Origin: Bradymonadia bacterium
Lineage (GTDB): Bacteria; Myxococcota_A; Bradymonadia; UBA7976; UBA1532
Assembly: GCA_046290225.1 (NCBI GenBank)
Contig: JBKAGE010000009.1
Coordinates: 1-53,935, forward strand
DNA: 53,935 nt
Reading direction: 5' to 3'
The notes under the pieces were generated by a model. The model was not told the DNA's origin and made no database searches. It saw only the letters and a list, made by a program, of their open reading frames with translations. Shown piece after piece: positions 12,938-53,696 of this stretch (its first letter is position 1; each line of letters opens with the position of its first letter). Position numbers and translations under genes: made by a program.

Positions 12938-12984
12938 GTCACTGCTCGTGGAGCAGCCGTGGTGCTGAGCTGAATTGGGCTTAA

Positions 12985-13501
12985 GCGTAGGTGATGGCTG
13001 GGCCCTTGTAGGCAGTCATCGCTTCGCTCTGACTGCGTAGGCAGCTCTGTCGGCCGGCCTTCGGCCCGCCTTGGAGCTGCGTACACGTCGGCACACTCGC
13101 TGGCGCGAGCAGGCCTCCGGGTAGGCAGGGTCGCTCAATGCTGACGCATTGATTGCTCGCTCCCCTGCGTAAAAAGTCAGTTCTGGTGTGACTTTGCACT
13201 GATTCCGGCGCTGCTGGGGCTTTCGCCGAGCATTCACACTCAGAGGCTTGCAGGTTCGCGGTAGGTCGAATCCCGGCGGGGTTCAGCAACGAGATACAGA
13301 AGAAGCTCTTTACGCAGGGGAGCGAGCGAAAAGGGCGAAGCCCTGAGCGACCCTGCCTACCCGGAGGGGTGTCCGCGCAAGCGGATGCCCGAACGTGTAC
13401 GCGCCAGACGAGGTTGCCCGAAGGGCGACCGAAGGCCGGGCGCCTACGCAGGCAGAGCGCAGCGATGACTGCCTACAAAGGCTCAGCCACCGCTTGCATC
13501 A
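12985..13501. repeat. Palindromic intergenic element, family A copy 1 (REP/REPIN-like)
   Basis: Nested inverted repeats, e.g. perfect 24 bp 13114-13137/13344-13367 and 19 bp 13155-13173/13309-13327, around a ~135 bp core; inverted homolog at 29617-30136. Confidence 0.92.
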
Positions 13502-13589
13502 TTGACCATCCAAGCTTTCCAGCCCTTGCGCACAGATTCTTTTGTGTGCAAACGATCTGACCTCCAATCGTCACCACGAAACGAGGTCC

Positions 13590-15026
13590 ATGGGCACCAT
13601 CGCCGCCAGCTTCATCGCGTGTCTGCTCGTCTTCACTCTCATCGGGGTGATGTCGTCCAAGGCTAAACAGACCACCACCGAAGACTACCTCGTCGCCAGC
13701 CGGAACATCCCACCGTGGCTTGTGGCGCTCTCAGCTGTATCGACCAACAACAGCGGATACATGTTCGTGGGCCTCATCGGCTTCACCTATGCCTATGGGT
13801 TGTCGTCCATCTGGCTCTCACTCGGGTGGCTCGTCGGTGACTTCCTGGCGTGGTTCGTCGTGCACAAGCCCTTGAGAGAGTCTTCAGGCACTGCCAACGT
13901 CAGCAGCATCCCCGGGTTCCTCGCCCACGATCGACAGCAGGGCAACTCCCGGCTCATCGCCGTGATCGCCGGGTTGATGACGCTGGCCTTCCTCAGCGTC
14001 TACGCCGCCGCGCAGCTCAAGGCCGGCAGCAAGGCCCTGCACGTTATGTTCGGGTGGGAAGAGAGCCTCGGCGCCATCATCGGCGCCGTGCTCGTCGTGG
14101 TTTATTGCTTCTCCGGTGGCATCCGCGCCTCCATCTGGACCGACGCCGCCCAGTCCATGGTCATGATCGGCGCCATGTTGATGCTCGTCGTCGTCGTGGC
14201 CATGGAGTTCGGTGGACCTGATGAGTTGTTGGCGCAGCTCGAAGCCATCGATCCCCAGCTCGTCACCCTCACACCCCCCGATGCCGAGTGGGGCCTCGCC
14301 GTCTACATCCTCGGGTGGCTCGCCGCGGGCATTGCCGTCGTGGGGCAGCCTCACATCATGATCCGCACCATGACCCTCGATGATCCGGCCAAGATGGGCC
14401 GTACGCGGAACATCTACTTCGCCTGGTACTTGCCCTTCACGATCCTCGCCATCCTCGCAGGCCTCTACAGCCGTGTGTTCTTCGAGGATGGGGGCATCAC
14501 CTCATCCTTCGACGCCGAGCTGGCTTTGCCCACCATGGCCATGGGGTTGCTGCCCGAGGTCCTTGTGGGCTTGATCCTCGCCGCCCTCTTCGCCGCCACC
14601 ATGTCCACCGCCGACTCCCAGTTGCTCTCGTGCTCCGCAGCGATCACCCAGGACGTTGCTCCCACGCTCAACCGCAGCTATTTCGCTTCGAAGATGGCCA
14701 CCATCGGGGTCACTCTGCTGGCCCTCGCCGTGGCCCTGTTCGGATCAGGCAATGTGTTCACCCTCGTGGTGCTGGCGTGGTCCAGCCTTGGGGCAGGGCT
14801 CGGGCCGTTGATGTTCGTCAGGGCCAAGGGCAGATCTGTGTCGCCGGCCCTCGGCGGGACCATGATCGTGGCCGGAGTTGCCACGGTGCTGGTCTGGAAG
14901 TACGTGCTGGAGTGGGGCGGCGGCCTTTACGAGGTCCTGCCGGGCATGCTGGCGGGTTTCCTGATTTACGCAGTGGGCAGCGCGATGTCGCCTCAGCCGG
15001 TCAAAACGGCTTCTTCTCGAGCCTGA
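13590..15026 (+). CDS. Sodium:solute symporter (PutP-like)
   Basis: DYLVASR, SAVSTNNSGYMFVG, GGIRASIWTD, GQPHI and AATMSTADSQLL motifs; many TM helices. Confidence 0.92.
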   Translation: MGTIAASFIACLLVFTLIGVMSSKAKQTTTEDYLVASRNIPPWLVALSAVSTNNSGYMFVGLIGFTYAYGLSSIWLSLGWLVGDFLAWFVVHKPLRESSGTANVSSIPGFLAHDRQQGNSRLIAVIAGLMTLAFLSVYAAAQLKAGSKALHVMFGWEESLGAIIGAVLVVVYCFSGGIRASIWTDAAQSMVMIGAMLMLVVVVAMEFGGPDELLAQLEAIDPQLVTLTPPDAEWGLAVYILGWLAAGIAVVGQPHIMIRTMTLDDPAKMGRTRNIYFAWYLPFTILAILAGLYSRVFFEDGGITSSFDAELALPTMAMGLLPEVLVGLILAALFAATMSTADSQLLSCSAAITQDVAPTLNRSYFASKMATIGVTLLALAVALFGSGNVFTLVVLAWSSLGAGLGPLMFVRAKGRSVSPALGGTMIVAGVATVLVWKYVLEWGGGLYEVLPGMLAGFLIYAVGSAMSPQPVKTASSRA

Positions 15027-15070
15027 GCTTTCCCTTGAGGGGGGGCGACCGGCTTCGCTACCGTGCGCCC

Positions 15071-15583
15071 ATGCGGTTGCACATCCTCACCTTGATCGCC
15101 CTGCTCGCGGGCTGCGCCGAAGACAAGCTGCCCCCGAGCCCCATCGGCCGACAAATCGCCCGTGGAGAGCAGGGCCTCGTCACCTCGGTGCAAGATGGCG
15201 ACACCTTCCGCGTGACCCTCGAAGACGACATCTCCGTCTCGGTGCGTGTGCTCGGAGTGGACTGCCCGGAGAGCAGCTTCAACGCCAAGTGCGAGCGTGA
15301 CGGCGCCGAGGGCCGGCGACCCTGTGAGGAGCAGATCCCCCTCGGTCAACGGGCCACCGTGCGGGCCCGAGCGCTGCTCAACGGACAACAAATCACCCTC
15401 GAGCCCGGCGAGAACGGCTTCGAGTGGGACACCTTCGGGCGTCTCCTGGCCTATGTACGCCTCCCCGACGACCAGGACTTCGGGTTGGTGATGTTGTCCG
15501 AGGGGCTGTGCAGTGACTTCAGCTGGCGTTATCCACATCCCCGCCAGGGGCCCTATCGCGAGGCTGACACCCTCGGCCCTTGA
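15071..15583 (+). CDS. Thermonuclease (SNase-like) lipoprotein
   Basis: Lipobox LLAGC; VQDGDTF, VRVLGVDCPE and DTFGRLLAYV motifs. Confidence 0.9.
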   Translation: MRLHILTLIALLAGCAEDKLPPSPIGRQIARGEQGLVTSVQDGDTFRVTLEDDISVSVRVLGVDCPESSFNAKCERDGAEGRRPCEEQIPLGQRATVRARALLNGQQITLEPGENGFEWDTFGRLLAYVRLPDDQDFGLVMLSEGLCSDFSWRYPHPRQGPYREADTLGP

Positions 15584-15616
15584 GCAGGCCGCCGATCCCG
15601 CTCTACTCTCCCCGCC

Positions 15617-16159
15617 ATGAAGACGATCTCGATCATGTGTGCGCTGCTGGCCCTCTGGGGCTGTGACGATGGCGGCGATGAGTCGTCCCCCGGTGGTGCT
15701 GGTGGGATGGGTGGTGTTGCCGGTGGTGGTTCGGGTGGCGGTGGCTCTGGCGGCACCTCGATGATGCCCGACGCGGCCATGGGCTCCATCGAGCTGGGTA
15801 CGGGCTTCCGGAGCTTCGAGTCTCTGGAAGACGGCCAGGAGGTGCCCATCATCGCAGGCATCCAAGGGGGCTTTCACATCTGGGGGGCCATTCGGGGTGA
15901 GCACTTCGATGGCTCTGAAGTGCGGATGCTCTTCGAGCTGGTGCAGGACGGCGAGGTGGTGGGCGGCGCCAACTACATCGACTTCATCACCCCCGACGAT
16001 GATGGGATCTACGAATATCCTGCCGTGGCCGTGGTCTTCGACGAGGCCAACCCCAACCTCTACGAGGACAAGCCCACCTTGATGCGGGTGCAGCTGACCG
16101 ACGCTGAGGGGCAGGTGCTCACCGACGAGATCACCCTCGACCCGTTCTGCTGTGAATAG
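15617..16159 (+). CDS. Hypothetical lipoprotein with Gly-rich linker
   Basis: ALWGC lipobox, Gly-rich spacer, acidic globular domain. Confidence 0.75.
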   Translation: MKTISIMCALLALWGCDDGGDESSPGGAGGMGGVAGGGSGGGGSGGTSMMPDAAMGSIELGTGFRSFESLEDGQEVPIIAGIQGGFHIWGAIRGEHFDGSEVRMLFELVQDGEVVGGANYIDFITPDDDGIYEYPAVAVVFDEANPNLYEDKPTLMRVQLTDAEGQVLTDEITLDPFCCE

Positions 16160-16187
16160 ACTCTGAGCTGTGAAACGTAGAAGGGGG

Positions 16188-16584
16188 GCGGACGGCCGTG
16201 CTTGGGCACCGCCTGTAGCGGACGACCGCGCTGCGCGCCGTCTGTAGCGGACGCCTGCTGCGGCTTCGCCTTGCAGAGCTGTAGCGGACGCCGAGTCTGC
16301 CTTCGGCAGCCTGAGCTGTAGCTTTCTAAGAGACTTTTGGTGTGCCTGGTGGGTTTCTCAACCCAGGTAGGGGCTTACGCCGGAACTGGTGTGTCAGGGG
16401 CCAACAGCATTGGCGGTAGATGAACCCACACACGCCCCCCTCAACTGATCTTCAAAAAAGCTACAGGGAATTTGCCGTAGGCAAATGAGCGTCCGCTACA
16501 GCTTTCGCCGAAGGCGAGGCGTCCGCTACAGGCGCAGCGCAGCTGGGCCGTCCGCTACAGGCGGCCCGAAGGGCGGCCGTCCGC
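16188..16584. repeat. Palindromic intergenic element, family B copy 1 (CTGTAGCGGACG arrays)
   Basis: CTGTAGCGGACG at 16213, 16242, 16279 (plus partials); inverse CGTCCGCTACAG at 16490, 16520, 16549; hairpin spacers; ~135 bp core; second copy at 36813-37206. Confidence 0.93.
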
Positions 16585-16666
16585 TCACACTGCGTGGCAT
16601 GTGTGGCACACCTCCTGCTCTCCGAGCGCGGGCCTGACAACAGGCCAGATGTGGATCGGAGTCCCC

Positions 16667-17470
16667 ATGTTCAAGTTGTTGATCGCGTGTTGCGCCCTCT
16701 CTCTCTGGGCCAGCAGCGCTTCCGCTCAAAGCCGTGTCGATTGCTTTGCTGTGCTCAAAACCCCCGGTGACCAGCTCATCTTGAGCGACGAAGAGGCCTG
16801 TAACCGGGCCACCATGCCTTACTCCACCTTCAAAGTGCCCCTGGCCCTCATGGCCATGCAGGCCGGGGTGGTGAAATCCATCGAAGACGAGATCGAGTGG
16901 GATCCGAAACAAGATCCGGCGCGGGGATGGTGGCCTGACAGCTGGCGTGGATCCCAGAACCTGAGGGCGGCGCTGCACAGCTCCTCGGCGCCCTACTTTC
17001 GCACGCTGGCGCGATCCATGGGCCTTGTGCCCATTGCCAGAGCATTGAAGCTGTTTCGATATGGCAATCGACAGCTCGACCCCACCATCTTCCCTGGTCG
17101 TGTGTGGGTAAAGGGGCCCCTGGCCATCTCGCCTGTGGAGCAGCTCGACTTCCTCAAGCGGGTGCACACGCGTACCCTGCACGGCGTCGACGACGCGCAC
17201 ATCGAGCAGCTCGAGGCCGCCTGGGTCGACACCGCGCCGGGGCTGGAGCTGTTCGCCAAGAGCGGCACAGGGGCCCTCGGCGACGAGATGGTGGGGTGGT
17301 ATGTGGGCTACACCGTACACAATGACGAGACCCACTACTTCGCGTTGCGCCTCGTGGGGCCTGATGTGAAGTCCGTCACGGGATGGCATCGGCGATCAGA
17401 GGCCCGGCGGCTGCTCGTGAAGCACAGTGCATGGCCTGCAGAGGTCAAACTCGACGATCTGTCACAGTGA
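16667..17470 (+). CDS. Class D beta-lactamase-like / penicillin-binding transpeptidase domain protein
   Basis: PYSTFK (SxxK), YGN, WVKGPLAISPVEQ, KSGT and GWYVG motifs; signal peptide. Confidence 0.88.
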   Translation: MFKLLIACCALSLWASSASAQSRVDCFAVLKTPGDQLILSDEEACNRATMPYSTFKVPLALMAMQAGVVKSIEDEIEWDPKQDPARGWWPDSWRGSQNLRAALHSSSAPYFRTLARSMGLVPIARALKLFRYGNRQLDPTIFPGRVWVKGPLAISPVEQLDFLKRVHTRTLHGVDDAHIEQLEAAWVDTAPGLELFAKSGTGALGDEMVGWYVGYTVHNDETHYFALRLVGPDVKSVTGWHRRSEARRLLVKHSAWPAEVKLDDLSQ

Positions 17471-20095
17471 CCAGATGGGCCCCTCGGCGCCCTCGCGCTC
17501 TGTGAGCGAGACCATCGACGAGATCGTGCGGGCCGTGGCTTCATCGGTGAGGATCTCACCGGGGCGCGCCTGGTTGCGCAGCTGCGAGGCGCGGTAGACC
17601 ACGGTGCCCACCGCTGTGTAGTTCATCCGCTCTTCAGTGCCTACATTCCCCACCACCGCGGGCCCCGTGGCCACCCCCACCCCGATGTGCATGCGGGGCC
17701 ATTGAGGGTGCTCTGTGTTGAGGCGATCGATGGCCTGCACCATCGACTGCGCCGCCTGCACCGCCGACCATGGATCATCCTCGTGGGCGAAGGGTGTGCC
17801 GAAGAGAGCCATCACTGTCTCTTTGATCAGGGCGTCCACCATGCCACGGTGGGCCGTCACCGCCGCCACCACCGCCTCGTAGTATGCGTTGAGCCAAGCA
17901 ACGACTTGCTCTGGCTCGCCGAGGGCTTCGAGATCTGGGTGGCTGCCCGGGCCCTCTTCGCCGGTGAGGGCGATGAAGGCCACAGTCACCTTACGACTCT
18001 GGCCGCTCAGGGTCACCGCCTGGCGGGTGAGCAGCAGATCCTCCACCACCTCCGGGCCCACATAGCGGCGGAAGCTGTCCACCAGCAGCTCGCGCTCCGT
18101 GATGTCGTCCGCCAGGATCATCACCCCACGGATCATCCCCTCGGCGTCGCGGTAGAGACCCCCTCGGGCCATCACCGCCCGGAGGCGCCCCTGGGCTGAG
18201 CGCAGCGACACCTTCGTCGGGGCCAGGCGGCCGCGGCTCTGCACTTGTCGGATCAGCTCCGAGATCTCCACCCCCTTGATGAGGCGCAGGGCGTCGAGCA
18301 CGTGGCGGCCCACCAGATCTGCAGAGTCCATGTCGAGCAGCGACGTGAGGGCAGGGTTCACCGCCCGGATGATCCAGGTGCTGGCGTCGATGACCATCAA
18401 GCCCGTGTTGATGCTGCTCAACACGTTCTCGTAGAAGTCGCCCGACTCTGCAGGCACGCCGATGTCGGTGGCCTCGTCGGCGAATTGAGAGACGTCGAGG
18501 GCCGTCTGCTCGTCATCGACTGGCTGCCCGAGCTGCACCAGATCGAGGGTCTGACGGGGTTTGACCGGCATCGGCAAGGGCTCGGTGGGGCCGCTCGGGG
18601 TCGAGCCTGCTCCGGTGGCCCAGAATTGCTCGTAGCAACGGCAGATCACCCGGGCCATGTGCCAGAAGTGGGCCTCGAGCGTGGACCAGTGATCTTCCAG
18701 GCTGCGGCGCTCTTTTGCCATGAGGCCGCCGCGACCACCCTCTGCAGCCCAGCTGCGCAGCGCCGGGAACACACAGCTGAAGGCTCCCATGAGATCGTGC
18801 AGCTTCACCACGTGGCCCGTGGCCCGGAAGCGCGCCTCCATAAAGGCCGTCAGGGCGCTCTCGTCGGGCTCGGGGTGCAACGCCCACAGCACGAGCTCCC
18901 GTGCGTTTCGGCGGGAGAAGGCCTTTGGATTCTGACGCCAGGCCAGCATCTGGCGCTGCACCGTCTCGATGATCTCGTCGAGCAGCGTGTCAGCCCCTGA
19001 CCGCAGCAGATCGAAGGTCTCTTCTGCGCCTTTGCGGGCCCCGGCCCACATCGCTCCGAGCTCCTGGCGCATCGAGAGCGACTCCAGATCGCGGCGCATG
19101 GCCGCCACCTGGTCGTAGCGTTGGGCGGGATCTTTCGCGATGGCCCGATCGACGACCTGCTGCAGGCCCTCGATGACCGGCCCTGCACCCATCGATGCAG
19201 CGAGGGGTGGGGGGGAGTCTTGAATCTGCTTCAAGATCACTGAGATGGCGTGCTCACCGCCTACCGCCTGAAGGCCCGTGAGCATCTCGTAGAGCATCAG
19301 GCCCAGGGCGTAGATGTCGGCGCGGTGGTCCACCTCTACCCCACGGATCTGCTCCGGGCTCATGTAGTTCGGCGTACCGCTGAGGCTGCCGGTGAGGGTG
19401 ATGGGGGCCGAGTCGCGCTCGTGTCGTGCTCGGGCGATGCCGAAGTCCACCACCTTCACCAGCTCCGCGCCCTCGGGGGTCTGGATCAGCATCACATTGG
19501 CGGGCTTGAGATCGCGGTGCACCACACCGTGGCGGTGGGCCTCCTCGAGAGAGCGGGCGATCTGGCAGGTGAGGGCGATGGCCCGCTCTGGGCTCAGCGC
19601 GCGGGTCGTCGGATCTTGCATCACCTGCAACAGCGTGGGGCCCTCGATGAACTCCATGGCGATGAACAGCTCGCCGCCCTGGCCTTCGCCGAAGTCGTAG
19701 AGCGTCACGGTGTTCGGGTGCCTCAGGCGGCTGATGACCCGGGCCTCTCGGCGAAAGCGCGCCTTGGCCTGGATCGTGGCGTCGTTGACCTGTGAATGGG
19801 GCAGGTTCGGATCGGCGAGGACCTCGGCCCGGAGCAGCTTGATGGCCACGCGGCGGCCCACGGGCAGCTGGATCGCCTCGTAGATTGTCCCCACGCCCCC
19901 TGTGGCCACATGCCGTACCAGGGCGAAACGCTCCGCAAGCAGCCGTCCGATGTGTCGATCTCGTTGGTGCGCTTCGAGACCGTCGGCGTCGAGGTAGACG
20001 CCCTCACCGCAGTGAGCGCAGACCATGATCTCCTCGTCTGCGCGATGGTGATCGCACAGCGGGCAGCGCCAGGGGTCATGATTTAAGGCAGACAT
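17462..20095 (-). CDS. Ser/Thr protein kinase with N-terminal Zn ribbon, helical and PAS domains and a degenerate class III cyclase domain
   Basis: [25 protein letters not shown] and [12 protein letters not shown] '[13 protein letters not shown]...VNPA'; C-terminal '[15 protein letters not shown]'. Confidence 0.9.
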
Positions 20096-20228
20096 TGCGC
20101 ACCAGCATACACAAGATGGTATCTGCGCACCCCCCAGATCAGCTAACGTGTTTCTGGCGAAGATTGCTGGGGATACAATCTTCCATCGGGCACATTTTTC
20201 GGGCTGGTTTCGAGATGCGGGAGAGGGC

Positions 20229-22601
20229 ATGTCGAAGGAGAGCACGACGCTCGCAGGGCGGATCGAAGAGATCGAACAATTACGTTCGATGCTGGCCGAG
20301 CAGGCGGGCACTGAGCGGATTGATTTGCTCCTCGAGTTGGCGCCGAGACTCAGAGAGTTACACCCGGAAGAGGCGCTGAGCTGCGCAGCGGAGGCTGTGC
20401 TCCATTGTGTCGAAGCCAGGCGTCACCTCGAGCTGGTGGAGGCCACCCGAGAGGCGGCCATTGCCGCTTTAATGCTGGGCCGACAGAACGAAGCCCTCGA
20501 CTGGATTAATCAGGGCCTCCCACGGGCGGGCATCGCGCAGGCCCACAACAAAGTCGTCTTGTTGCTCAACCTGCGGGGCATCGCCCTCGATCAGCAAGGC
20601 GCCCCTGTCGACGCCATCGAGTCCTATGTCGAGGCCCTCTCGTGGGCCAGCCGCCATTGCCCCACGATGGATCTCGGCCGCATTCACAACAACCTTGCCA
20701 TGTCGTACTGGCGCCTTGGTGAGAGCGAAGCTGCCCTCGAGCAGCACCAACGGGCGCTCACGTGTGCCGAGCATGCCGGTGACCGGCGGCGCATCGGCAT
20801 TTCATTGCTCAACATCGGGGTGCTGCAGCGCGACTGCGGCTCGCTCGATGCCGCCCTCGCCAGCCTCACCAGAGCCCTCATGAGTTTCGAACGGGTGGAG
20901 GCGCCGCGCTCTGTGGCGCGGTGCCTCTCAGCGCAGGGCCGCATCTTCGGCGCTTGGGGTGCGTGGCAGCGGGGCGCCAGCCTGTGTGAAGAAGCGGCAG
21001 CCCGATCAGTGTGGCTTGGTGACGTCGCCGGACAAATCGAGAGCCTCGCCGATCTCGGTCATGTGCTCGCCGAGGCTCAACCGTGGGCAGCAGTACAGCA
21101 TCTCAAGCATGCCCTCGATCTCGCCGAGGGCCGGTCCATGTGGGTCGAGGTCCGTGACATCTCGATCCACCTCGCCGAGGTGTATGCGGGCCTCGGCGTA
21201 TATGACGAGGCGTGGCGACTTCAGAAGCAGGTCACAGAGGTCTCCACCCGTTTGCTCGATCAGGAGAAGAACGAGCAAATCAGCAGGCTGAGGGCGCGAC
21301 ACGAGTTCGAGGTTGCCCGTCTCGAGCAGACCCGCCTGTTGCAGGACAACGCCGCCCTCGTAAAAGCCAACGGGGAGATCCAGGCTCAGGCCGACGCGCT
21401 TTCTCGCGCCCGAGACGCCGCCCTCGTCGCCGCACGGGCCAAGAGCGAATTCCTCGCGGTGATGAGTCATGAGATCAGGACCCCGCTCAATGGTGTCATC
21501 GGCATGGCGGAGTTGCTGCTCGGCACCCGTCTCGACACCGAGCAGCGGCAGTACGTGAACTTGCTCAAGGCCTCTGGAGACGGGCTGCGCCACACCCTCG
21601 ACAGCATCCTCGACTTCTCCCGGCTCGAACAGGGGGGCGTCACCCTCGAGTGCCGACGGTTCAACCCCGCCCGAACCCTCGCGGGCTGGCTGGAGACCCC
21701 ACGGCAGATGGCCCAGGAGCAGGGGCTCACCTGCACCCTCGACATCGCCCCCGACGTGCCCAAGGAGGTCGCGGGTGATGATCACCGGATCCGGCAGATC
21801 CTCGACAACCTGGTCTACAACGCCATCAAGTTCACCGAGTTCGGCCACATCATCGTGCACCTGAGCGCCAGCGAAGAGTCAGGCAAGACCCTCTTGAGCT
21901 ACGTTGTGCGCGACACCGGCGCCGGAATCCCCGCGCAGGCTCAGGGCACGCTCTTTGAGCCCTTCACTCAGGCCGACTCGAGTACGACTCGACGGTATGG
22001 CGGCAGCGGCCTCGGCCTCGCCATCGTCGGTCAGCTCACCGAGCTGATGGGCGGCTCGATCTCCGTGGAGAGTACGCTCGGTGAAGGCTCGACCTTCACG
22101 GTGACTCTGCCGCTCAAAGCAGCTGCTGTCGGCAGCCTCGAAGCTGAGGAGAGCCCTGCGCCACAGCTTAGCGGGCGCATTCTGCTCGCAGAGGACAACC
22201 CGGTGAATCAGACGGTGACGCGGCGACTTTTGGAGCGCGCCGGGCATACTGTGGTGGTGGTGGAGGATGGTCAGGCAGCGGTCGTCGCCGTCGAGCGCGA
22301 CCACTATGATCTGGTCTTGATGGACTGTCAGATGCCGGTGATGGATGGCTATGAAGCCACACGGACCATCCGTGCCCTGCCAGGGCCGGTGGCCTCCATC
22401 CCCATCGTTGCGCTCACCGCCAATGGTCTCGATGGCGAGCGTCAGCGGTGCTTCGACGCAGGCATGAACGACTATTTGAGCAAGCCGGTGAACCCCAAGC
22501 GGCTCATCAAGCGCATCAGCCGATGGCTGCCTGATCTCGTTGCGCCCGCATCAGTTGGCGCAGGCGTCGAGGGGCCCGGCGGGGTCGACTGGCGGCAGTG
22601 A
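20229..22601 (+). CDS. TPR-containing hybrid sensor histidine kinase/response regulator
   Basis: TPR repeats; [16 protein letters not shown]-box; N, G1, F and G2 boxes; receiver LLAEDN...[11 protein letters not shown]...SKP. Confidence 0.95.
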
Positions 22602-23241: not shown

Positions 23242-23291
23242 GGTGCTCTACCTTCTCCCATCCATGCATGGGCATACGTTGACACGGACAA

Positions 23292-24140: not shown

Positions 24141-24168
24141 ACTGCCTCGTCACATGTCACAGGAGTCG

Positions 24169-24939: not shown

Positions 24940-24960
24940 AGGTTCGGCGCGCTGCCGCGC

Positions 24961-26415: not shown

Positions 26416-26571
26416 GGTGAGGCTTTCTCTCGGCGGGCGGCGGGTCACGGGCGTTGCTACGACCTCTAACCCCGCCCCCGCCCCGAATCAACCCTTCGAC
26501 AATGACCGCTCGATGACACCTGTTTGTCACACCGTCGACAAAGAGACTGTGGTGAGCCATCATGCTCTGCC

Positions 26572-28146: not shown

Positions 28147-28165
28147 GTGTAGCCATGGGGCGCGC

Positions 28166-28651: not shown

Positions 28652-28779
28652 GATGTCCTTTCTGCGGTGGGGCGCCCTGGAGGGCGTTGTCTTGAAACCC
28701 CGCCGCACACGGCGCATGCTTCCGCCCCATACCCAAGTGTGCGGAAGGCTGCGCGATCGTGACTGAGTGGAGGCACAGA

Positions 28780-29598
28780 ATGATCGGCAGGGCGAGCGAT
28801 CTGTTGATCGCGGAGCGGACGGTGATCTTCGCCATCTTGCTCAACGCTCTGACGATGTTCGTTGCCGGGTTCTACTCTGAGGGCTCACCGGCGGCTCGGG
28901 CCCTCGACTTCGTCGACGTGGCCTGCATTGTGTACTTCCTCGTGGAGGCGATCCTCAAGATTCGTCGCTTCACTTTCGCAGGCTACTGGGCCAGTGGGCT
29001 CAACCGCATCGACTTCGCTGTGCTGCTGGTGAGCATGCCGGGCATCGTGGTGCCCATGGCAGAACTGGAAGGGCTGAGCGTGGTGCTCCTGCTGCGCATG
29101 AGCCGCCTGGTGCGCATGGTGCGCCTGCTCCGCTTCGTGCCTGATCTCGATCGCCTGCTCGCGGGGATCCGCCGCGCCTTGCGGGCCTCGGTGGGGGTGT
29201 TCCTGGCCATGTCGGTGCTGCTCTTCATGCTGGGCATGGGGGCGCACCATTTGTTCCGAGACTTTGCCCCGGAGCACTTCGGGGATCCGCTGATCTCCCT
29301 GTATTCGATCTTCAAGGTGCTCACCATCGAGGGCTGGCACGAGATCCCTGATCTGATCGCCTCCCGAGCGGATCATGTGATTTGGGGCACGCTGGCTCGG
29401 GTGTACTTCTCGGTGGCGGTGGCCCTGGTGGGGCTCCTGGGGCTGTCCCTGGCGAACGCGGTCTTCGTCGACGAGATGCTGGCGGACAACCATTCTGATC
29501 TGGAAGCGAAGGTCGACGCGCTGACGGTGGAGATCCGCGCTCTGCGGGCGGATGTGCTCGCTCGAGATGCTTCTGCAGAGGATCAGGCGCAGGGCTGA
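28780..29598 (+). CDS. Prokaryotic voltage-gated cation channel (BacNav/Cav-like)
   Basis: S4 LRMSRLVRMVRLLR; pore filter TIEGW; C-terminal coiled coil. Confidence 0.88.
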   Translation: MIGRASDLLIAERTVIFAILLNALTMFVAGFYSEGSPAARALDFVDVACIVYFLVEAILKIRRFTFAGYWASGLNRIDFAVLLVSMPGIVVPMAELEGLSVVLLLRMSRLVRMVRLLRFVPDLDRLLAGIRRALRASVGVFLAMSVLLFMLGMGAHHLFRDFAPEHFGDPLISLYSIFKVLTIEGWHEIPDLIASRADHVIWGTLARVYFSVAVALVGLLGLSLANAVFVDEMLADNHSDLEAKVDALTVEIRALRADVLARDASAEDQAQG

Positions 29599-29616
29599 GC
29601 ATCTGGCGATTGGCTG

Positions 29617-30136
29617 TGATGCATGTCATGGCTGGGCCCTGGTAGGCAGTCATCGTTGCGCTCTGCCTGCGTAGGCGCCGTGCCTTCGGTCGCCCTGCGG
29701 GCAACCTCGTCTGGCGCGTACACGTTCGGGCATCCGCTTGCGCGGAACCCCTCCGGGTAGGCAGGGTCGCTCAATGCTAACGCATTGTTTGCTCGCTCCC
29801 CTGCGTAAAGAGCTTCTTCTGTCTCTTGTTGCTGATGCCCGCCGGGATTCGACCTACCGCGAACCTGCAAGCCCCTGCGTCTCAACGCTCGGTGTTAGCC
29901 CCAACAGCATTGGAAACAGCACACAGCCACACCAGAACTGGCTTTTTACGCAGGGGAGCGAGCAAACAATGCGTCAGCATTGAGCGACCCTGCCTACCCG
30001 GAGGCCTGCTCGCGCCAGCGAGTGTGCCGACGTGTACGCGACCGACGAGGCGGCCCGAAGGGCTGCCGAAGACCGGGCGCCTACGCAGGCAGAGCGCAGC
30101 GATGACTGCCTACAAAGGCCCAGCCATCACCTTCGC
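29617..30136. repeat. Palindromic intergenic element, family A copy 2 (inverted relative to copy 1)
   Basis: Same nested stems as 12985-13501, with the core in reverse-complement orientation. Confidence 0.92.
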
Positions 30137-30291
30137 CACTGTAAAATAGATTAGATGATGCTATTTATAGCAATTGAGATGCTAAATAAATCTTTTGATG
30201 GGCTGATGATGCCCGTTTTACCTCAAAACGGCTGGCACACCCTCTGCAATACACAGAATGCGAAACAGAGATTCGCTCAAAGGAGCTTGCC

Positions 30292-30933
30292 ATGCGTCGC
30301 CTGTGTACCCTGCTCATCGCCCTCGCCACCTTGATCCCCACCTTCGCCAGCGCATGCTGGTCCGGCATCTACCTGAGCGGTGAGCGACTCACCATCCGCG
30401 TCGCCGAAGACGACCTGCAATGGACCCCCGAGCTCGCTCAGAAGATGGGCGCTTTGCTCATACAAGGGGAAGCCTTGTTACCGCACGGCGTACAGGTCGA
30501 GGTCGATTTTGGTCAGGCCGAGATCTGCGAGGGCCCTGACCATTGCCGCATCCTCGAAGGCGTCACCCTCGACAACCTGCTCAGCCGGCTCGCCCTCGAG
30601 ATGAAGCTGCCTGCCAGGGCCATCAAAGAGGTGCAGGCCATGGAGACGCCTGTCTATGTCGTGCGGATCCCCACCGATGACGTGGCCCACGTCGCTCGGC
30701 AGATCAACGCAGACGACGCCTACCTGCACGGGAACATGGAGGTCGGTGACTTCCCCGGGCTCACAGCCCAGGCCTTGCCGGTGGTGAAAGATGAGATTTG
30801 GGTGGGCACCTTCATCGACAAGTTCGACGCCGAGAAGGCCGCTTGGGCGCTGATCAAGATGGGGCACAGCCCTGTGGTCCATCAGCTCGGTACCCCCTTG
30901 AAGAAGCACCAAGCCGTGAGTCACAAGCGCTGA
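30292..30933 (+). CDS. Secreted hypothetical protein, possible C-terminal SPOR-like motif
   Basis: RBS AAGGAG; signal peptide ending ASA; 'IWVGTFIDKFDAEKAAWAL'. Confidence 0.65.
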   Translation: MRRLCTLLIALATLIPTFASACWSGIYLSGERLTIRVAEDDLQWTPELAQKMGALLIQGEALLPHGVQVEVDFGQAEICEGPDHCRILEGVTLDNLLSRLALEMKLPARAIKEVQAMETPVYVVRIPTDDVAHVARQINADDAYLHGNMEVGDFPGLTAQALPVVKDEIWVGTFIDKFDAEKAAWALIKMGHSPVVHQLGTPLKKHQAVSHKR

Positions 30934-31222
30934 GAGGTCCTAACAAAACAGCTCCCGTCGCCAGGGGCGCAGCGCTGTTGAGTGCAGCCAGACGAAAGTA
31001 CCCCACGGGCAACTCTTCGCTCCGTCGGCTTCGCCTTTGTCGACTTCGAGTTGTCTGGCAAAGCCAGATACCATCGTCTGTCTGCACTCAGCACTTCGCG
31101 AGACATCCAAAACCGTCCTCGACGATGCTTTAAAGGCGCTAGCCGGCATCGCCTGCGGGTGTTCTGGATGTCTCACTCGTACCTCACGCCCCTGGCTCGG
31201 TCCGTCGTTCTGTTAGGACCTC
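30934..31222. mobile_element. MITE-like element with terminal inverted repeats and TGA target duplication
   Basis: Termini GAGGTCCTAACAAAAC / GTTCTGTTAGGACCTC (one mismatch); TGA at 30931-30933 and 31223-31225; long internal stems; no credible ORF. Confidence 0.8.
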
Positions 31223-31238
31223 TGAGTCTCGGCAGGGC

Positions 31239-32255
31239 TCACCAGATGCAGCGACCATCGTGGGACTTGGGCACCCCAGCGCCGGCCCGGGCGCAGTCGT
31301 TGCTGTACGTGCGGCCATCACAGCCGCAGACCGGATCGTAGACCTGGGGGCAGAGCACAGCCTCGTTGGAGACGCACACACCCGCCGCATCCGCGATGCC
31401 ACAGCCCTGCACCTCAGCGTAGCTGCACATCAGCCCCTCGCCGCACACCAGGCCTGCAATGCCTCCGCAGAGATCACCGAGACCCGGCGCGGGGCGATCC
31501 GGCTCCGGGCATGCTTCGTTCGAGACGACGTCGACGCCTGCACCAGCGGCATGGCAGATGTTGCTGTAGGTGTTGCCGTCACAGCCGCAGACCGGGGCGT
31601 AGAGCTGGCTGCAGAGCTCCGGAGAGGGCGTGCAGACACCTGGGCGATCATCAGCGCCGCAGGTGTCGCCTTCCCAGTCACAATAGAAACCCTCAGGGCA
31701 TGCCTCGAGACCACGGCTTCCACAGAGCTGGGGCGCAGGCTCGCACCCTTCACCCACACACGCCGTGGTCAAGGTGTAGGCACCCTCAGTGGGCAGACTG
31801 CGCTGCATGAACTGCCAGGTGCTCGCCAACACGAGGTACGACCCCTCGGCGAGATCGAGATCGAGGCAACTGTCGTACTGACTGGCCACTTTGTCGTCGG
31901 CACAGTCGTCATTGTGCTCGAGATACTGCCAGCCTGCAGGGCCCTGGCTGTAAATCACCATGAAGCTGTCCGCGCCATCGGCCCCTTCTAGGGTCAGGCT
32001 GACACCCTTGGTGCCCTCGGCGGTCAATTGATACAGGTGATAGGGCAGCAAGGTGGAGAGGCTGTGCGTACGGGCCTCGTCGAGGCCGATCTCACCTTGG
32101 TATGCGGTCTCGCCGTCGGCCTTGTTGCTCACGTGAGCCAGGCCGTCGACCTGGGACAGATCTGCTTCACGCTTGGATTCGGTGGCATCCCCACAACCAC
32201 CGATGACCAAAGCACCCAGCACGCACGCGGACAGACGCAGATGTGTACGTCGCAT
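31239..32255 (-). CDS. Lipoprotein with PPC-like domain and two Kazal-type domains
   Basis: VIGGC lipobox; HNDDC; two 'C..(L/V)Y.PVCGCDG.TYSN.C' Kazal motifs. Confidence 0.88.
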   Translation of the reverse strand: MRRTHLRLSACVLGALVIGGCGDATESKREADLSQVDGLAHVSNKADGETAYQGEIGLDEARTHSLSTLLPYHLYQLTAEGTKGVSLTLEGADGADSFMVIYSQGPAGWQYLEHNDDCADDKVASQYDSCLDLDLAEGSYLVLASTWQFMQRSLPTEGAYTLTTACVGEGCEPAPQLCGSRGLEACPEGFYCDWEGDTCGADDRPGVCTPSPELCSQLYAPVCGCDGNTYSNICHAAGAGVDVVSNEACPEPDRPAPGLGDLCGGIAGLVCGEGLMCSYAEVQGCGIADAAGVCVSNEAVLCPQVYDPVCGCDGRTYSNDCARAGAGVPKSHDGRCIW

Positions 32256-32385
32256 CAGACCTCTCCTTCTGATTCTTCTACTTCAGTGCGATGTTCGGAT
32301 GGGCGTATCAGCCGGTACGCCTATGGGGAGAGGGCATTATCACATTCGCAGATGACTGACGATAAATTATCGGGGCCGCTGGAGA

Positions 32386-33759
32386 TCAGCTCGAAGGGGT
32401 CCGCATCGTCACGAATTCTTCCGCGGCGGTGGGGTGAATGCCCACAGTAGCGTCGAACTGCGCCTTGGTGGCGCCGCATTTGAGGGCGATGCCCACGCCT
32501 TGAATGATCTCGGGGGCGTCGGCGCCGGCCATGTGAGCCCCCACCACCCGATCCGTGGCAGCGTCGACGATGAGCTTCATGAAGGTGCGCTCCGTGCTCC
32601 CTGAGAGGGTGTGCTTCATGGGGCGGAACTCGCTGGTGTAGATCGTGACGTCGTCGAGGGCGCTACGGGCCTGGGCTTCAGTGAGGCCCACCGTGGCCAT
32701 GGGGGGCTGAGTGAAGACGGCGGTGGGGATGTCGGCATAGTCCATCACCCGGCTGCCGTCGCCGAAGAGCTGGTTCACCAGGACCATGGCCTCTTCGATG
32801 GCCACCGGGGTGAGGTTCACACGATCGGTGACGTCGCCGAGGGCGTAAATCGAGGGCACCGAGGACTGGTAGTTGTCGTTCACCACGATGGCCCCGTTGG
32901 GCTTCATCTCGACACCGATCTCTTCGAGGCCGAGACCCTTGACGTTGGGCTTGCGGCCGATGGCGTAGAGCACTGCGTCGGCGGGGAGGGCGTCGCCGTC
33001 GGAGAGGGTGCACAGCAAACCGTCGTCGGTGCGATCGACGCACTCGATGATCTGGTTGAAGTGGATGTTGATGCCCTTCTTGCGCATCTCTTCGGTGACA
33101 AAGCTGCGCAGATCATCATCGAAGCCCCGAAGCAGGTGTGCCCCACGGTAGATGAGGTCGACCTGAGCCCCGAGGCCGTTGAACACGCCGGCGAACTCAA
33201 CAGCGATGTAGCCACCACCGGCGATAACGATGCGCTCGGGCATCTGCTCGAGGGTGAAGACGTCGTCGCTCACCATGCCGTGCTCGCGGGCGCCAGGCTC
33301 AGATGTCGTCGAGGGGCTGCCTCCAGTGGCTACGAGAATATGTTTCGCGGTGTAGCGCTTGGGCCCCTCGTCGGTGGCCACCTCCACTGTGTGGGCGTCG
33401 ATGATTTTGGCCCAGCCGTGGATGATCTGAACCCCGGCGCCTTTGAGGATGCGCTCGTAGATGCCGTTGAGGCGGGCGATCTCTTTGTCTTTGTTGGCGA
33501 TGAGGGTGGGCCAGTCGAAGGTGGGCTTGCCCTCGAGGGTCCAGCCGAAGCCCGCGGCCTCTTCGAAGGCCTCGTGGTAGTGGCTCGCATAGACCATGAG
33601 CTTCTTGGGCACGCAGCCCACGTTGACGCAGGTGCCTCCGAGGCGCTGACCTTCTGCGACGGCGACGCGGGCCCCCGTCGCTGCGGCCATGCGGCTCGCC
33701 CGAACCCCGCCGGAGCCGGCGCCGAGGGTGAAGAGGTCGAAGTCGTACTGCTCGCTCAT
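32386..33759 (-). CDS. gor: Glutathione-disulfide reductase
   Basis: GAGSGGVRASR, GGTCVNVGCVPKK, GGGYIAVEFA and GIHPTAAEEFVTM motifs. Confidence 0.93.
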   Translation of the reverse strand: MSEQYDFDLFTLGAGSGGVRASRMAAATGARVAVAEGQRLGGTCVNVGCVPKKLMVYASHYHEAFEEAAGFGWTLEGKPTFDWPTLIANKDKEIARLNGIYERILKGAGVQIIHGWAKIIDAHTVEVATDEGPKRYTAKHILVATGGSPSTTSEPGAREHGMVSDDVFTLEQMPERIVIAGGGYIAVEFAGVFNGLGAQVDLIYRGAHLLRGFDDDLRSFVTEEMRKKGINIHFNQIIECVDRTDDGLLCTLSDGDALPADAVLYAIGRKPNVKGLGLEEIGVEMKPNGAIVVNDNYQSSVPSIYALGDVTDRVNLTPVAIEEAMVLVNQLFGDGSRVMDYADIPTAVFTQPPMATVGLTEAQARSALDDVTIYTSEFRPMKHTLSGSTERTFMKLIVDAATDRVVGAHMAGADAPEIIQGVGIALKCGATKAQFDATVGIHPTAAEEFVTMRTPSS

Positions 33760-33826
33760 GATGCTTCCTTCAATGATGTGCCGAGGGGAGGATGCGTCAG
33801 GGTGGGGGGAAGGTCCAGGCTGGGGA

Positions 33827-34939
33827 TCACTCGAGATCCCGGGCCACGCGAAAGCCAGTGAGCCACGAGGGGAGCCGCTGCAGACCAAAGCCACGTCGGT
33901 GGGTTTGCAACTCGCCCAGTTGAGACAGCAGGTGGCCCCCACGAATGGCGCGTCCTTCCAAGTGATCCGGGCTCGGTTGCGACCGAGCGCTCTGATCTGC
34001 TGGGGCATCCATGTAGCTGTCGTGCCAATAATCGGCGATCCACTCCTCGACGTTGCCTGCCATGTCGCACACCCCTTGAAGCGTATTGCCGTCGGGCAGG
34101 CTGCATACAGGCGCCGTGATGCCCGTGTTACAGCCGGGTTGCTCGACGAATATGCCGTCCTCGGTCAGGAAGCTGGTGCCGATGTGAGCCAGCTCACACG
34201 TGGGCTCGGCGATGCCCCACGGGTAGAGCGGGTCGAAGGGTATGCCTTGCCCCTTGGCGACATACTCCCACTCCACCTCGCTGGGCAGGCGGCCGCCCAC
34301 CCACTCGGCGAAGTCCACGGCCTGGGACCATGTGACGCCGTTGATGGGGTGTTGCTCGCGGCCTTCCGTACCCCAGTTGAAGAGTTCACCGTCGGCAATC
34401 GGCGGGTCACAGGCGTTGGCTTCTACGCAGGCTGCATATTGCTCGACGGTGACTTCGGTGCGGCTCATCTCGAAGGGTTCGACGTTGATGAAGCGCAGTG
34501 GGCGCTCGTTCGGGACCTCTGCTTCCGTATTGCCCATGGTGAAACCATCTCCTGGAAGCACCACCCAGGCGATGAGCGCCGCAGGATCTATGGGCTCGGC
34601 ATCTGGCAACATGGCATCTGGAAGTGCTGCATCCTCGAGTTCTGCATCTGCCGGCTCTACAAGAGCGTCGCTGGGGGGCTGCTGCCCGGCATCGGACTCA
34701 CCAGGGGCCATGTCGAGCAGTCCGCCATCTGAAGCGAGCGACATGTCGGAGAGTGACGCCATGTCAGGCGTCGTCGCAGCGTCAGCACGCCCGGTATCAG
34801 TTTGTTCAGCGTCAGGGCCCGTATCGGTGGACGATGGAAAAGTTGGCGGCTCTGGATCGAGGCAGCCCGCGAGCATCAAGAGCCCGACTGTGAATGTGAG
34901 AGGTGTCGTGCGAACACCTCTGAGCGTGCGATCCCACAT
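33827..34939 (-). CDS. Lipoprotein with formylglycine-generating enzyme (SUMF1/EgtB/PvdO-like) domain
   Basis: LAGC lipobox; FTMG, TEVTVEQY, RLPSEVEWEY, DMAGNVEEW and GFRVAR motifs. Confidence 0.9.
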   Translation of the reverse strand: MWDRTLRGVRTTPLTFTVGLLMLAGCLDPEPPTFPSSTDTGPDAEQTDTGRADAATTPDMASLSDMSLASDGGLLDMAPGESDAGQQPPSDALVEPADAELEDAALPDAMLPDAEPIDPAALIAWVVLPGDGFTMGNTEAEVPNERPLRFINVEPFEMSRTEVTVEQYAACVEANACDPPIADGELFNWGTEGREQHPINGVTWSQAVDFAEWVGGRLPSEVEWEYVAKGQGIPFDPLYPWGIAEPTCELAHIGTSFLTEDGIFVEQPGCNTGITAPVCSLPDGNTLQGVCDMAGNVEEWIADYWHDSYMDAPADQSARSQPSPDHLEGRAIRGGHLLSQLGELQTHRRGFGLQRLPSWLTGFRVARDLE

Positions 34940-35102
34940 CGGGTGTCACTCCTTGGCGGCGCTCAGTATATGCACATGGGTTCGGGTTGTTCCCGCTCAA
35001 TGTGCACCGAGCTGTTGCCGATGTGGGCCATACGTTGCAGTCTCCCCGTGTCCGCCGGGCTGATCATGCAGGCCCGGGGAGAGCAGGAGGAGCGAGCCCG
35101 TC

Positions 35103-36809
35103 ATGCGCCAGCGATTGATCCAGGTGGAACACGGCCCCAAGGGGTCGCTGCAGATGGAAGGGGCCAGCGCCCGACGCCACGGCGGGATACACCTCTTGCA
35201 CTTAAGCGGGGGTCCGTACGATCGGGCATTTCAACATGGCACCCTGCTGCGGCGTCAGATCCCCGAGGGCCCTCTGCCCCTGTTCAACCGCTATCTTGAG
35301 ATCTTCCTGAAGCAGTCCCGAGCCCGGACCATGGCGCCGGTGATCCTCGAATGGCTCCAGCGCCGCGTGATCCCCCGCATCGAGGGGCAGTTCTCGCCTC
35401 GGCTGCGGGCGTCGATTGCCGGGATGGCCGACGGATCGGGTGTGCCCGAGTCCGAGGTTTCTGCTGCGTACGCCATGCCTGAGGCCATGCTGGCCCTGGT
35501 GGCCCGCTACGGCCGCATCACCGGCAAGTCCATCGCGCTGCCGCCGATCTATGGCTGCACCACTGCCATCGCCGGCCCGACGAAGACGGTGCGCAAGCAG
35601 TTGTTGCATGCCAGAAACTTCGACTTCTTCGGTATGGATCGCTGGTCGGCGCACCCGGTGGTGGCGTTCCACACCCCGGAAGAGGGCTTGCGGCATGTGT
35701 CGGTGACATCAGCGGGCATTGTCGGTGGCGGCATCACGGCGATGAACGAGAAGGGCGTGGTGTGCACCGTGCATCAGCACTTCCCTCGTGAGTTGAACTT
35801 CGATGGCCTCTCTGTGGGTGAGCCTGCAGAAGAGGTGGTGCGCCTGGCCAATTCGGTGGAAGAAGCTGTGGCGGTGCTCGACCAGCACCAGACCATCGGC
35901 ACCTGGACCTACCTGATCTCCGATCGCAACGGCGCCGTGGCCTACGAAATGTCGGCCATGGGGCGTCGTGTGGTCCCCATGACCGATGATCTGCTCGGCT
36001 ACGCCAATGTGATGATGCACCCCGATCTGCACACCGCGGAGCTGGAGTTCTACACCCCATATGTGCGAGCGAATCACGCCCGCCTGGTCCGCGTGCAGCA
36101 ACTGCTTCGCAGCCGTGAGAAGCACGATGAAGGTGGCATGGTGGAGATCTTGTCGGACCGCTACGACGAGGTCTCTGGTGGCAACGTGGCCTTCGGCCCC
36201 ACCATCGCCTCGGTGCTCGCCGCGGCGAGCGTGGTGTTCCGCCCCGCAGACTGCCGCCTCTGGGTGAGCAGCGGGGCTGCGCCGACCTGTTATGGCCCCT
36301 ATGTGGGCTTCGATCTCAAGCAGCAGGGGCCCAGCGGCAAACCCAAGCGCTTCAACGGCCCGCTCGAACGAGACGATCCGGCGCTCCGGGCCATCCGGCT
36401 GTATGCCGAGGGGGCGGGTGCGGCTCTCACGCTCGACGACGTGGCCCAGGCGTCGGCTCTGATAGAGCAGGCGGTCGAACTGCAGCCCGAGTCGCCGATG
36501 TACCGACTCGTGGCGGCCATGTTGAGGGTGAAGCTGAACCACGGTGAGGCTGCCCAGGCCCACGTGAAGACGGCGCTCTCGCTCACCTCTCGCCCCGATG
36601 TCACCGCGAGGCTCCAGCTGACGTTGGGATGGGCTCTCGATCTTCAGGGGGAGCGCCGAGAGGCGAAGGCGGCCTATGCCGAGGCGCTGGCTCTCGAGGC
36701 CCGAGATGCTGATCTGCGGCACTGGGCCAGGTCAGGGCGTCTGCGGGCGATGACTGCGCGCCGGGCGGCGCATTTGCCCATCGAGTTCGTGTACGGCGGG
36801 GTGGCGTAG
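35103..36809 (+). CDS. C45-family Ntn hydrolase/acyltransferase with C-terminal TPRs
   Basis: G-CTT autoprocessing site, HARNFDF and AMNEKGV; TPR-like helices at the C-terminus. Confidence 0.85.
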   Translation: MRQRLIQVEHGPKGSLQMEGASARRHGGIHLLHLSGGPYDRAFQHGTLLRRQIPEGPLPLFNRYLEIFLKQSRARTMAPVILEWLQRRVIPRIEGQFSPRLRASIAGMADGSGVPESEVSAAYAMPEAMLALVARYGRITGKSIALPPIYGCTTAIAGPTKTVRKQLLHARNFDFFGMDRWSAHPVVAFHTPEEGLRHVSVTSAGIVGGGITAMNEKGVVCTVHQHFPRELNFDGLSVGEPAEEVVRLANSVEEAVAVLDQHQTIGTWTYLISDRNGAVAYEMSAMGRRVVPMTDDLLGYANVMMHPDLHTAELEFYTPYVRANHARLVRVQQLLRSREKHDEGGMVEILSDRYDEVSGGNVAFGPTIASVLAAASVVFRPADCRLWVSSGAAPTCYGPYVGFDLKQQGPSGKPKRFNGPLERDDPALRAIRLYAEGAGAALTLDDVAQASALIEQAVELQPESPMYRLVAAMLRVKLNHGEAAQAHVKTALSLTSRPDVTARLQLTLGWALDLQGERREAKAAYAEALALEARDADLRHWARSGRLRAMTARRAAHLPIEFVYGGVA

Positions 36810-36812
36810 GGA

Positions 36813-37206
36813 GCGGACGGCCGCCCTTCGGGCCGCCTGTAGCGGACGGTCATCGCCTTACGGCGACAGCCTGTAGCGGACGCCTGCTTCGGCTTCGCCT
36901 TGCAGAGCTGTAGCGGACGCCGAGTCTGCCTCCGGCAGCCTGAGCTGTAGCTTTTTAGAGAGTTATGGTGTGTCTGGTGGGCTTCTCAACCCAGATTGGG
37001 GCTTACGCCGGAACTGGTGCGTCATTGGGCCACAACGTTCGCGGTAGATGAGTCAACGCCCCCAAACTGATCTTCAAAAAGCTACAGGGAATTTGCCGTA
37101 GGCAAATGAGCGTCCGCTACAGCTCTCGCCGAAGGCGAGGCGTCCGCTACAGACGGCGCGTAACGCGGTCGTCCGCTACAGGCGGTGCGCAAGCACGGCC
37201 GTCCGC
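36813..37206. repeat. Palindromic intergenic element, family B copy 2
   Basis: CTGTAGCGGACG at 36837, 36871, 36908; inverse copies at 37111, 37141, 37170; fills almost the whole gap between two convergent stop codons. Confidence 0.93.
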
Positions 37207-43211: not shown

Positions 43212-43266
43212 TCAGCGCGCAGGAGATTCAGCGCGCAGGAGATTCAGCGCGCAGGGGACTCAGCGC
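43212..43266. repeat. 16-bp tandem repeat (TCAGCGCGCAGGAGAT, three copies plus a partial)
   Basis: Units start at 43212, 43228 and 43244; the partial at 43260 coincides with the stop codon of the convergent gene. Confidence 0.9.
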
Positions 43267-53690: not shown

Positions 53691-53696
53691 AGCTCC

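Follow-up and report, generated by a model that had tools for sequence, protein, structure and literature searches.

Introduction

Several described systems resemble the elements reported here. In the intervening sequences (IVS) of 23S rRNA that bear an open reading frame (ORF) of the S23p/PF05635/TIGR02436 family, a four-helix-bundle gene lies in the loop of a stem, the two sides of which are inverted arms with internal repeats. The stem outlasts the gene, which decays (PMC4990558). Repetitive extragenic palindromes (REPs) of the GTAG type occur as dimers, as bacterial interspersed mosaic elements (BIMEs) and as REP doublets forming hairpins (REPINs); they show GTAG-footed hairpins, inverted doublets, TNC loops, hybrid dimers, and positions downstream of genes or between convergent ones (PMC3733652; bioRxiv 2021.07.10.451892). 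Avd, the accessory protein of diversity-generating retroelements (DGRs), forms a pentamer, binds a stem-loop capped by UNCG, and is required by its reverse transcriptase (RT) (bioRxiv 2023.10.23.563531), and PF05635 resembles it (PMC10053308). Here we describe two families of intergenic elements, A and B, found in a window of 53,935 nt (the whole stretch analysed), which is contig C9 (JBKAGE010000009.1) of the assembly G000 (GCA_046290225.1) of a Bradymonadia bacterium (8.58 Mb, 83 contigs, 99% complete). On balance, we favor reading both families as gene-less, module-shuffling members of a family of four-helix-bundle cassettes with REP-like arms.

As in the ORF-bearing IVS, a four-helix-bundle gene is placed between inverted, repetitive arms in family A. 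The sites of the A and B elements, however, are the 3′ ends of protein genes and not rRNA, and the gene is missing from nearly all copies, which have a non-coding core of about 115–120 bp between capped-hairpin arms of 140–200 bp. They look like REPINs in their hairpins and doublets, but measure 400–580 bp instead of about 100 bp, have a constrained spacer common to two arm families, and, in family A, enclose a four-helix-bundle gene instead of a transposase; furthermore, no REP-associated tyrosine transposase (RAYT) was found in the assembly. The protein family and the frequent UNCG loop type of the arms recall the DGRs, whereas the gene has no adjoining RT, there is no adenine-biased variation, and no pair of template and variable repeats was seen, although no search aimed at one was made. 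The bacterial MITEs (miniature transposable elements with inverted repeats), such as ERIC, YPAL, Correia, and Bcr1, are likewise non-coding, structured, multi-copy and placed beside coding sequences. These four are named in PMC3733652. In contrast to them, A and B have modular arms, and neither a target duplication, sharp ends nor a cognate transposase was seen.

The ORF of the IVS, the REP dimers and Avd have been published before, while the REP-like hairpin arms of 140–200 bp, a constrained core common to several arm types, and a measured decoupling of core and arm are new. In the open-access literature, we found no description of four-helix-bundle genes flanked by repeat arms anywhere but in rRNA. 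How the ORF-bearing IVS spread, and which role the four-helix-bundle protein has outside retroelements, is left open in PMC4990558. The genome studied here offers one intact gene, several arm families, and more than 60 natural variants of the gene-less form in which three boxes are constrained. Together these supply substrates and natural mutants on which binding and mobility could be tested.

Structure and copy number of the elements

The window holds two elements of each family. Every element consists of an arm, a core and an inverted arm, and folds into a single long rod (RNA folding z of −17.6 for A1 and −12.8 for B1). The features are as follows:

12938..13521: element A1, whole insert including degenerate G/T-rich outer flanks; starts directly after the TGA at 12935–12937; ends taken from the empty-site contig of metagenome run X2 described below
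12985..13178, plus strand: A1 left arm; hairpin units that have GTAG feet and, at their sides, hairpins with TNC loops
13179..13296, plus strand: A1 core; box 1 at 13179–13190, box 2 at 13215–13228, box 3 at 13254–13264
13297..13495, plus strand: A1 right arm, inverted; its side-hairpin modules differ from those of the left arm
16186..16332, plus strand: B1 left arm; a fixed 10-nt word with a variable capped hairpin, repeated in tandem
16333..16446, plus strand: B1 core; box 1 at 16333–16344, box 2 at 16369–16382, box 3 at 16409–16419
16447..16590, plus strand: B1 right arm
29940..30136, minus strand: A2 left arm, the element lying on the minus strand
29822..29939, minus strand: A2 core; box 1 at 29928–29939, box 2 at 29890–29903, box 3 at 29854–29864
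29625..29821, minus strand: A2 right arm; outer end 27 bp past the stop of an ion-transport gene ending at 29598
36811..36960, plus strand: B2 left arm; begins 2 bp past the TAG at 36807–36809
36961..37068, plus strand: B2 core; box 1 at 36961–36972, box 2 at 36997–37010, box 3 at 37037–37047
37069..37209, plus strand: B2 right arm; abuts the stop of a convergent gene

An initial annotation of this DNA had placed three boxes in each of the four cores, and all 12 boxes match its patterns at these positions with no mismatch. In the 8.58-Mb genome, the strict three-box pattern gave 19 matches and the relaxed pattern (up to two mismatches per box) 57, while the relaxed pattern gave none in the reversed genome. 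A BLAST search of the whole genome with arms and cores yielded 100 loci, and a box 2–box 3 match was present in 68 of these: 36 with two A arms, 26 with two B arms, one with an A and a B arm, and five partial. The genome thus carries 36 non-coding copies of family A, 26 of family B and several hybrids. Arm-only doublets with no core were also found (C35:489958, C77:18778, and C49:26723), which indicates that the core is dispensable for the persistence of a copy. Multi-copy elements are collapsed at the contig ends of the 83-contig assembly, where an enzyme gene may be concealed.

The A arms are strings of GTAG-footed stems. The B arms repeat a 10-nt word, each time followed by a hairpin from a shared pool, with no GTAG directly before the hairpin. 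GTAG-tagged palindromes in the form of extragenic, multi-copy inverted doublets are clear for the A units. The polarity of the hairpin loops was strict: 256 loops in A and 144 in B read TNC on the inward strand, and a single one in each family read it in the opposite sense. Loops of the GC-TNC-GC class numbered 116 in A and 60 in B, and presumably fit GNA triloops of DNA on the opposite strand. The CC-TNC-GG class, which in RNA corresponds to UNCG tetraloops, C(UNCG)G, numbered 140 in A and 84 in B on the strand read from the adjacent gene. None of the 26 B elements had the same module string in both arms. In the outer 30 nt of the A elements, the arm-to-arm identity within a locus was 0.70 compared to 0.54 between loci (p = 3e-6), and it reached at least 0.9 at 9 of 36 loci. 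This match of the outer flanks suggests a correction of one arm by the other.

The core is common to both families and constrained at the boxes

The proposal that one core lies in different arm families was borne out by reciprocal profiles against shuffles. With a profile built from A alone, 25 of 26 B cores scored above the best of 520 shuffles, and with a profile built from B alone, all 35 A cores scored above the best of 700 shuffles. The consensus cores of A and B were identical at 35 of 37 box columns and at 23 of 61 other columns. Moreover, the boxes are conserved in further copies: box columns were better kept than the rest of the core in family A (0.95 vs. 0.82, p = 3e-7) and in family B (0.89 vs. 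0.83, p = 0.02), with a slight circularity, since the boxes had been defined on four of the tested copies.

Two details of the earlier description needed revision. The first spacer, described as an invariant 24 nt, has this length most commonly (42 of 57 copies), but 25 nt in 14 copies and 23 nt in one. Box 1 agrees exactly with its pattern, but it is partly the inner end of the arm and not only a piece of the core; its pairing partner in family A is the start of the opposite arm. Box 2 forms a small hairpin with a cap, a type also present in the arms; in A1, its stem has 3 bp and its loop 4 nt.

The spacers measure 23–26 nt, with 46 and 50 distinct sequences among the 57 copies. They are homologous family variants that align to the family consensus and show ordinary, transition-rich variation. 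Outside the elements, 114 spacer queries against the whole genome gave no significant match, the best being 21 of 23 nt (E 0.075) or 17 of 17 nt (E 0.005). Covarying base pairs common to the core copies were detected on neither strand; A and B share only the 3-bp stem of box 2, with no two-sided changes. A search of the whole window against Rfam at the gathering threshold gave no match. The suggested RNA scaffold with variable guide segments was therefore not upheld. The arms, which elsewhere in the genome enclose a four-helix-bundle gene (see below), suggest that the elements are mobile rather than part of a guide-RNA system. The core was also considered as a short ORF and rejected, no frame being open in more than 17 of 35 A cores or 7 of 26 B cores.

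Arms and cores are exchanged between copies

In family A, core distances and arm distances were uncorrelated (Mantel r −0.12 and −0.04). The five pairs with the most similar cores, 0–2% apart, had arms that were 3–25% apart. Near-identical cores at different loci indicate recent copying. Linkage within the A core decayed with distance, near sites being more compatible than far ones (0.54 vs. 0.71; 0 of 5000 permutations).

Five hybrids were found, and all of them switch in or near a box. One runs from an A arm through the core into a B arm (C82:48336). In three others, an arm of a further family, E, is combined with an A half, the two being joined at box 1 (C47), before box 2 (C46), or at box 3 (C81). 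The fifth runs from a B arm through box 1 into an E arm (C43). Mixed arm pairs amount to 12 of 130 in the genome, and 2 of these 12 enclose a called gene. The hybrids and the decoupled genealogies of core and arm in family A indicate that inheritance is mosaic and that the arms are interchangeable, as had been proposed. Ectopic gene conversion alone could yield much of this pattern, which establishes that the parts are interchangeable and not an enzyme behind it.

A four-helix-bundle gene lies within the arms

The profile PF05635 (rRNA-IVS/Avd-like) gave three matches in the genome, which belong to two genes, one being frameshifted into two halves; TIGR02436 was also over its cut-off. Both genes lie within inverted arm pairs, the interiors of which make up 0.37% of the genome. 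The frameshifted gene is located between two complete A arms (C77), and the intact gene between arms of another family, D (C72). The initial annotation had seen no cognate enzyme in the window, but the arms do carry a partner gene on another contig, the four-helix-bundle gene.

In the class as a whole, PF05635 is present in 48 of 113 genomes. Of about 140 matches, 49 were examined, 29 of them picked by the retrieval program and 20 by us, and seven of these 49 were excluded as too near contig ends. Inverted flanks were found at 28 of the 42 testable loci compared to 0 of 100 small control genes, where the controls come from G000, the tested loci come from other genomes, and kin are not independent. 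The arms vary by locus and consist of hexamer to 9-mer runs or of word-plus-hairpin units. In genome G059, the four-helix-bundle gene lies within arms of the B design (fixed word and capped hairpin, no GTAG), and of the 10 other arm loci inspected, 7 are doublets that enclose no gene, their short centres lacking the three boxes. In genome G062, one arm word occurs only at the gene itself, which indicates that gene-less copies are not universal. Judged from sequence, B appears linked to the four-helix-bundle cassette through core homology and arm design. Both families, A and B, are probably related to these cassettes.

Two candidate connections of the core were considered. As a remnant of the four-helix-bundle gene or its leader, the core gave one alignment with p = 0.002 among 36 tests, a result that did not recur with 47 foreign genes. 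A promoter-like word (GCAAC or GCGAC, 15–17 nt, then CGA) occurs within 160 nt upstream of 20 of 46 four-helix-bundle genes compared to 2 on the reverse strand, and only 2 of 62 cores contain it. In two genomes, four-helix-bundle genes occupy apparently the same site with different repeat arms (L049 and L050); the flanking genes are, we assume, flagellar or type III export genes.

Genomic position and mobility

The elements sit mostly behind stop codons, and their arms begin at or just past the stops, as judged from genes called by a simple, purpose-written program. As many as 34 of 62 elements lie between convergent genes compared to 206 of 2554 background gaps, and 3 of 62 between divergent genes compared to 882 of 2554. 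All 62 copies with A-A or B-B arms are located between called protein genes, and none in rRNA.

An empty site of A1 was found in a relative, where a contig of the marine metagenome run X2 passes from 12937 to 13522 through only five other letters and shows no target duplication; it is a single contig of depth 2.6 and gives no direction of change. Neither a target-site duplication nor sharp ends were seen by eye on 62 flank pairs and this empty site. The depth summed over all contigs was 27 in the bin of B1 and about 1–3 in the bins beside it, in line with a repeat that has many copies in the relative. A joint over the B1 core in run X1 (16337 to 16515) had unknown letters between its ends and was not used.

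The distribution of the elements was narrow. The strict core pattern was absent from 60 other genomes (relatives), and BLAST detected no B element in 30 genomes of the order. Scans of GTDB with the core pattern and of JGI metagenomes with the two-box pattern and an A-arm 20-mer gave no matches. A B-arm pattern matched six times in GTDB, every match being an unrelated tandem repeat on inspection, and the two-box pattern matched seven times in IMG/VR, all within one phage coding sequence with no arms, which we ascribe to chance.

Search for a catalytic partner

The initial annotation had related the arms to RAYTs. The assembly yielded no gene of the Y1, IS110 or Y2 type, an absence that is limited by the collapsed repeats and, for Y2 (PF04986), by a control that was also silent. 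The Y1/RAYT profiles PF01797 and NF047646 gave no match in the assembly, and neither did IS110 (PF02371) and GxxExxY (PF13366). Searches by tblastn with 52 candidate frames from kin, and with two profiles built from them, detected no Y1 gene in the assembly. A scan of the genome for the HUH motif returned 11 frames, none of them convincing. Furthermore, the flanks of 45 Y1 loci showed no similarity to A or B.

Two convergent retron-type RT genes with an upstream inverted-repeat region resembling a non-coding RNA (ncRNA) are located at C79:177700–181433 (L032 and L033). The only element-like sequence that BLAST detected at this locus was a collapsed A arm of 46 bp, located between the two RT genes. 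It was rejected as the source of the elements, its own ncRNA-like region being unlike them.

Proposed mechanism

If A and B are gene-less members of the cassette family, the element would function in single-stranded form, as a folded rod bearing capped side hairpins. An oligomer of the four-helix-bundle protein might bind the capped hairpins as an accessory factor. This role in the mobile mechanism is a tentative suggestion, drawn by analogy because PF05635 resembles Avd and Avd binds a UNCG-capped stem-loop. The catalytic partner would be supplied in trans, with a reverse transcriptase or host recombination enzymes as candidates. Half-elements and cores would be exchanged between copies by recombination or gene conversion, and the boxes would be the usual switch points because they are the only homology between the arm families. 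We infer that the boxes are a cis signal from a common ancestor of A and B and not guides; they may serve as a nicking, binding or priming site.

A broader picture is speculative and, in our view, rather doubtful. The four-helix-bundle (Avd-like) family might be the protein part of a widespread, undescribed mobile system acting on folded single strands. The arms of the dozens of gene-less copies that it produced in this genome would then be exchangeable docking arrays of UNCG- or GNA-capped hairpins. The boxes would be a priming, nicking or strand-switch signal where half-elements change partners and where new copies would arise via a borrowed RT or nuclease.

Evidence against the cassette reading and rival explanations

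Several observations weigh against the cassette reading, in addition to the control genes drawn from G000 and the single empty-site contig mentioned above. No catalytic partner was identified in the assembly, although one may be hidden in collapsed repeats, and Y1 genes do occur in 70 of 113 genomes of the class, including 9 of 27 in the same family. No gene lies within B-B arm pairs in the whole genome. The gene on C77 is single and frameshifted, so it could be a passenger captured by arm swapping. Between the core and the four-helix-bundle gene, leader or trailer, no reproducible homology was detected (best profile E 0.18). The decoupling of core and arm is not general, as B cores do vary together with the right arm (Mantel r 0.48) and, weakly, with the left arm (r 0.18). 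Column conservation correlates only weakly between A and B cores (Spearman 0.19, p = 0.06). Core variation shows no adenine bias in family A (A 0.105, C 0.101, G 0.128, T 0.111), and the per-base rates of the family B core (0.13, 0.16, 0.14, and 0.09 for A, C, G, and T) likewise give no sign of the adenine-biased mutagenesis known from Avd-RT retroelements. Finally, the core has no relatives outside the lineage in the genomes and metagenomes scanned.

The main rival, which we regard as unlikely, holds that the elements are REPIN- or BIME-like doublets made by a RAYT (HUH Y1) that was lost or left unassembled, the core being a conserved extra-REP spacer and the gene a captured cargo. The GC-TNC-GC loops with their presumed GNA triloops fit this explanation, as do the REP-like position behind genes and the Y1 genes of same-family genomes. 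The A units, with GTAG-footed stems and inner GC-closed loops, are built like the GTAG-3 REPs described in PMC3733652, a likeness that also counts against the cassette reading, and REP dimers with conserved spacers are on record in the same source. However, both RAYT profiles were silent, the tblastn and profile searches returned no Y1 gene, and the 45 Y1 flanks lacked A- or B-like sequence. The spacer of REPINs is highly variable and their density depends on the RAYT, according to bioRxiv 2021.07.10.451892, and in G059 the same arm design flanks four-helix-bundle genes with no GTAG at all. If the cassette reading is correct, GTAG-tagged, REP-looking repeats need not have a RAYT partner.

Ranked third, and improbable, is a mechanism at the RNA level, in which the transcript of the upstream gene would fold into a rod and be trimmed by RNase III, and an RT with the Avd-like protein would copy it to new 3′ ends, the boxes being RNA signals. 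The C(UNCG)G loops on the gene-read strand (140 in A, 84 in B) are of the type that caps the RNA bound by Avd, two retron-type RTs are encoded in the genome, and some contig ends resemble, as we take it, group II intron ends. This explanation nevertheless conflicts with the lack of core covariation on either strand and of adenine bias, and with a retron locus that holds no element-like sequence beyond the 46-bp A arm; moreover, the GC-TNC-GC loops cannot form C(UNCG)G. For the IVS, PMC4990558 reports RNase III cleavage of the arms, which may contain heptamer repeats beside the S23p ORF; such cleavage would suit an RNA-level process.

That the elements are ordinary MITEs of a DDE insertion sequence (IS) is very unlikely. 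Such an origin would agree with the long inverted repeats at the ends, the dispersal of the copies, the empty site at strain level and the presence of several IS types that the assembly has collapsed, but sharp ends and target duplications were not seen, and the outer flanks are private to the locus yet match from arm to arm. The IS ends at contig tips are unlike the A and B arms, only truncated A copies being present there.

A core acting as a scaffold for 24–26-nt variable guides or captured spacers is largely refuted: three constrained boxes at near-fixed spacing and many distinct spacers would suit it, but the spacers follow the family consensus, vary in length and have no significant match elsewhere, and the viral matches come down to the one armless phage coding sequence.

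Other repeats and minor features

Two further arm families are abundant in the genome. Family D has 84 segments (e.g., G000 C72:82100–83450) with arms of hexamer runs and its own conserved core, which gave no score against the A/B core and is unrelated to it. Two kinds of IS-like contig ends break into family D arms. Family E has 115 segments, and an E arm at 53690–53935 of the window runs into a sequence present at several contig ends. Other contig ends, which we take to resemble the 3′ end of a group II intron, rejoin family E at the same break point, and the intron appears to target this family.

One MITE of about 165–190 bp, which has short inverted repeats at its ends and an apparent duplication of TA, is inserted in an A core and in a B core (G000 C34:360670–361333 and C78:372536–373095). 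In the window, a further palindromic repeat, which lacks the three-box core and has about seven copies by clustering, lies between two convergent genes at 30930–31226. A large, repetitive protein of the secreted type with TSP3-like and Ig-like repeats is encoded on the minus strand at 43260–47444.

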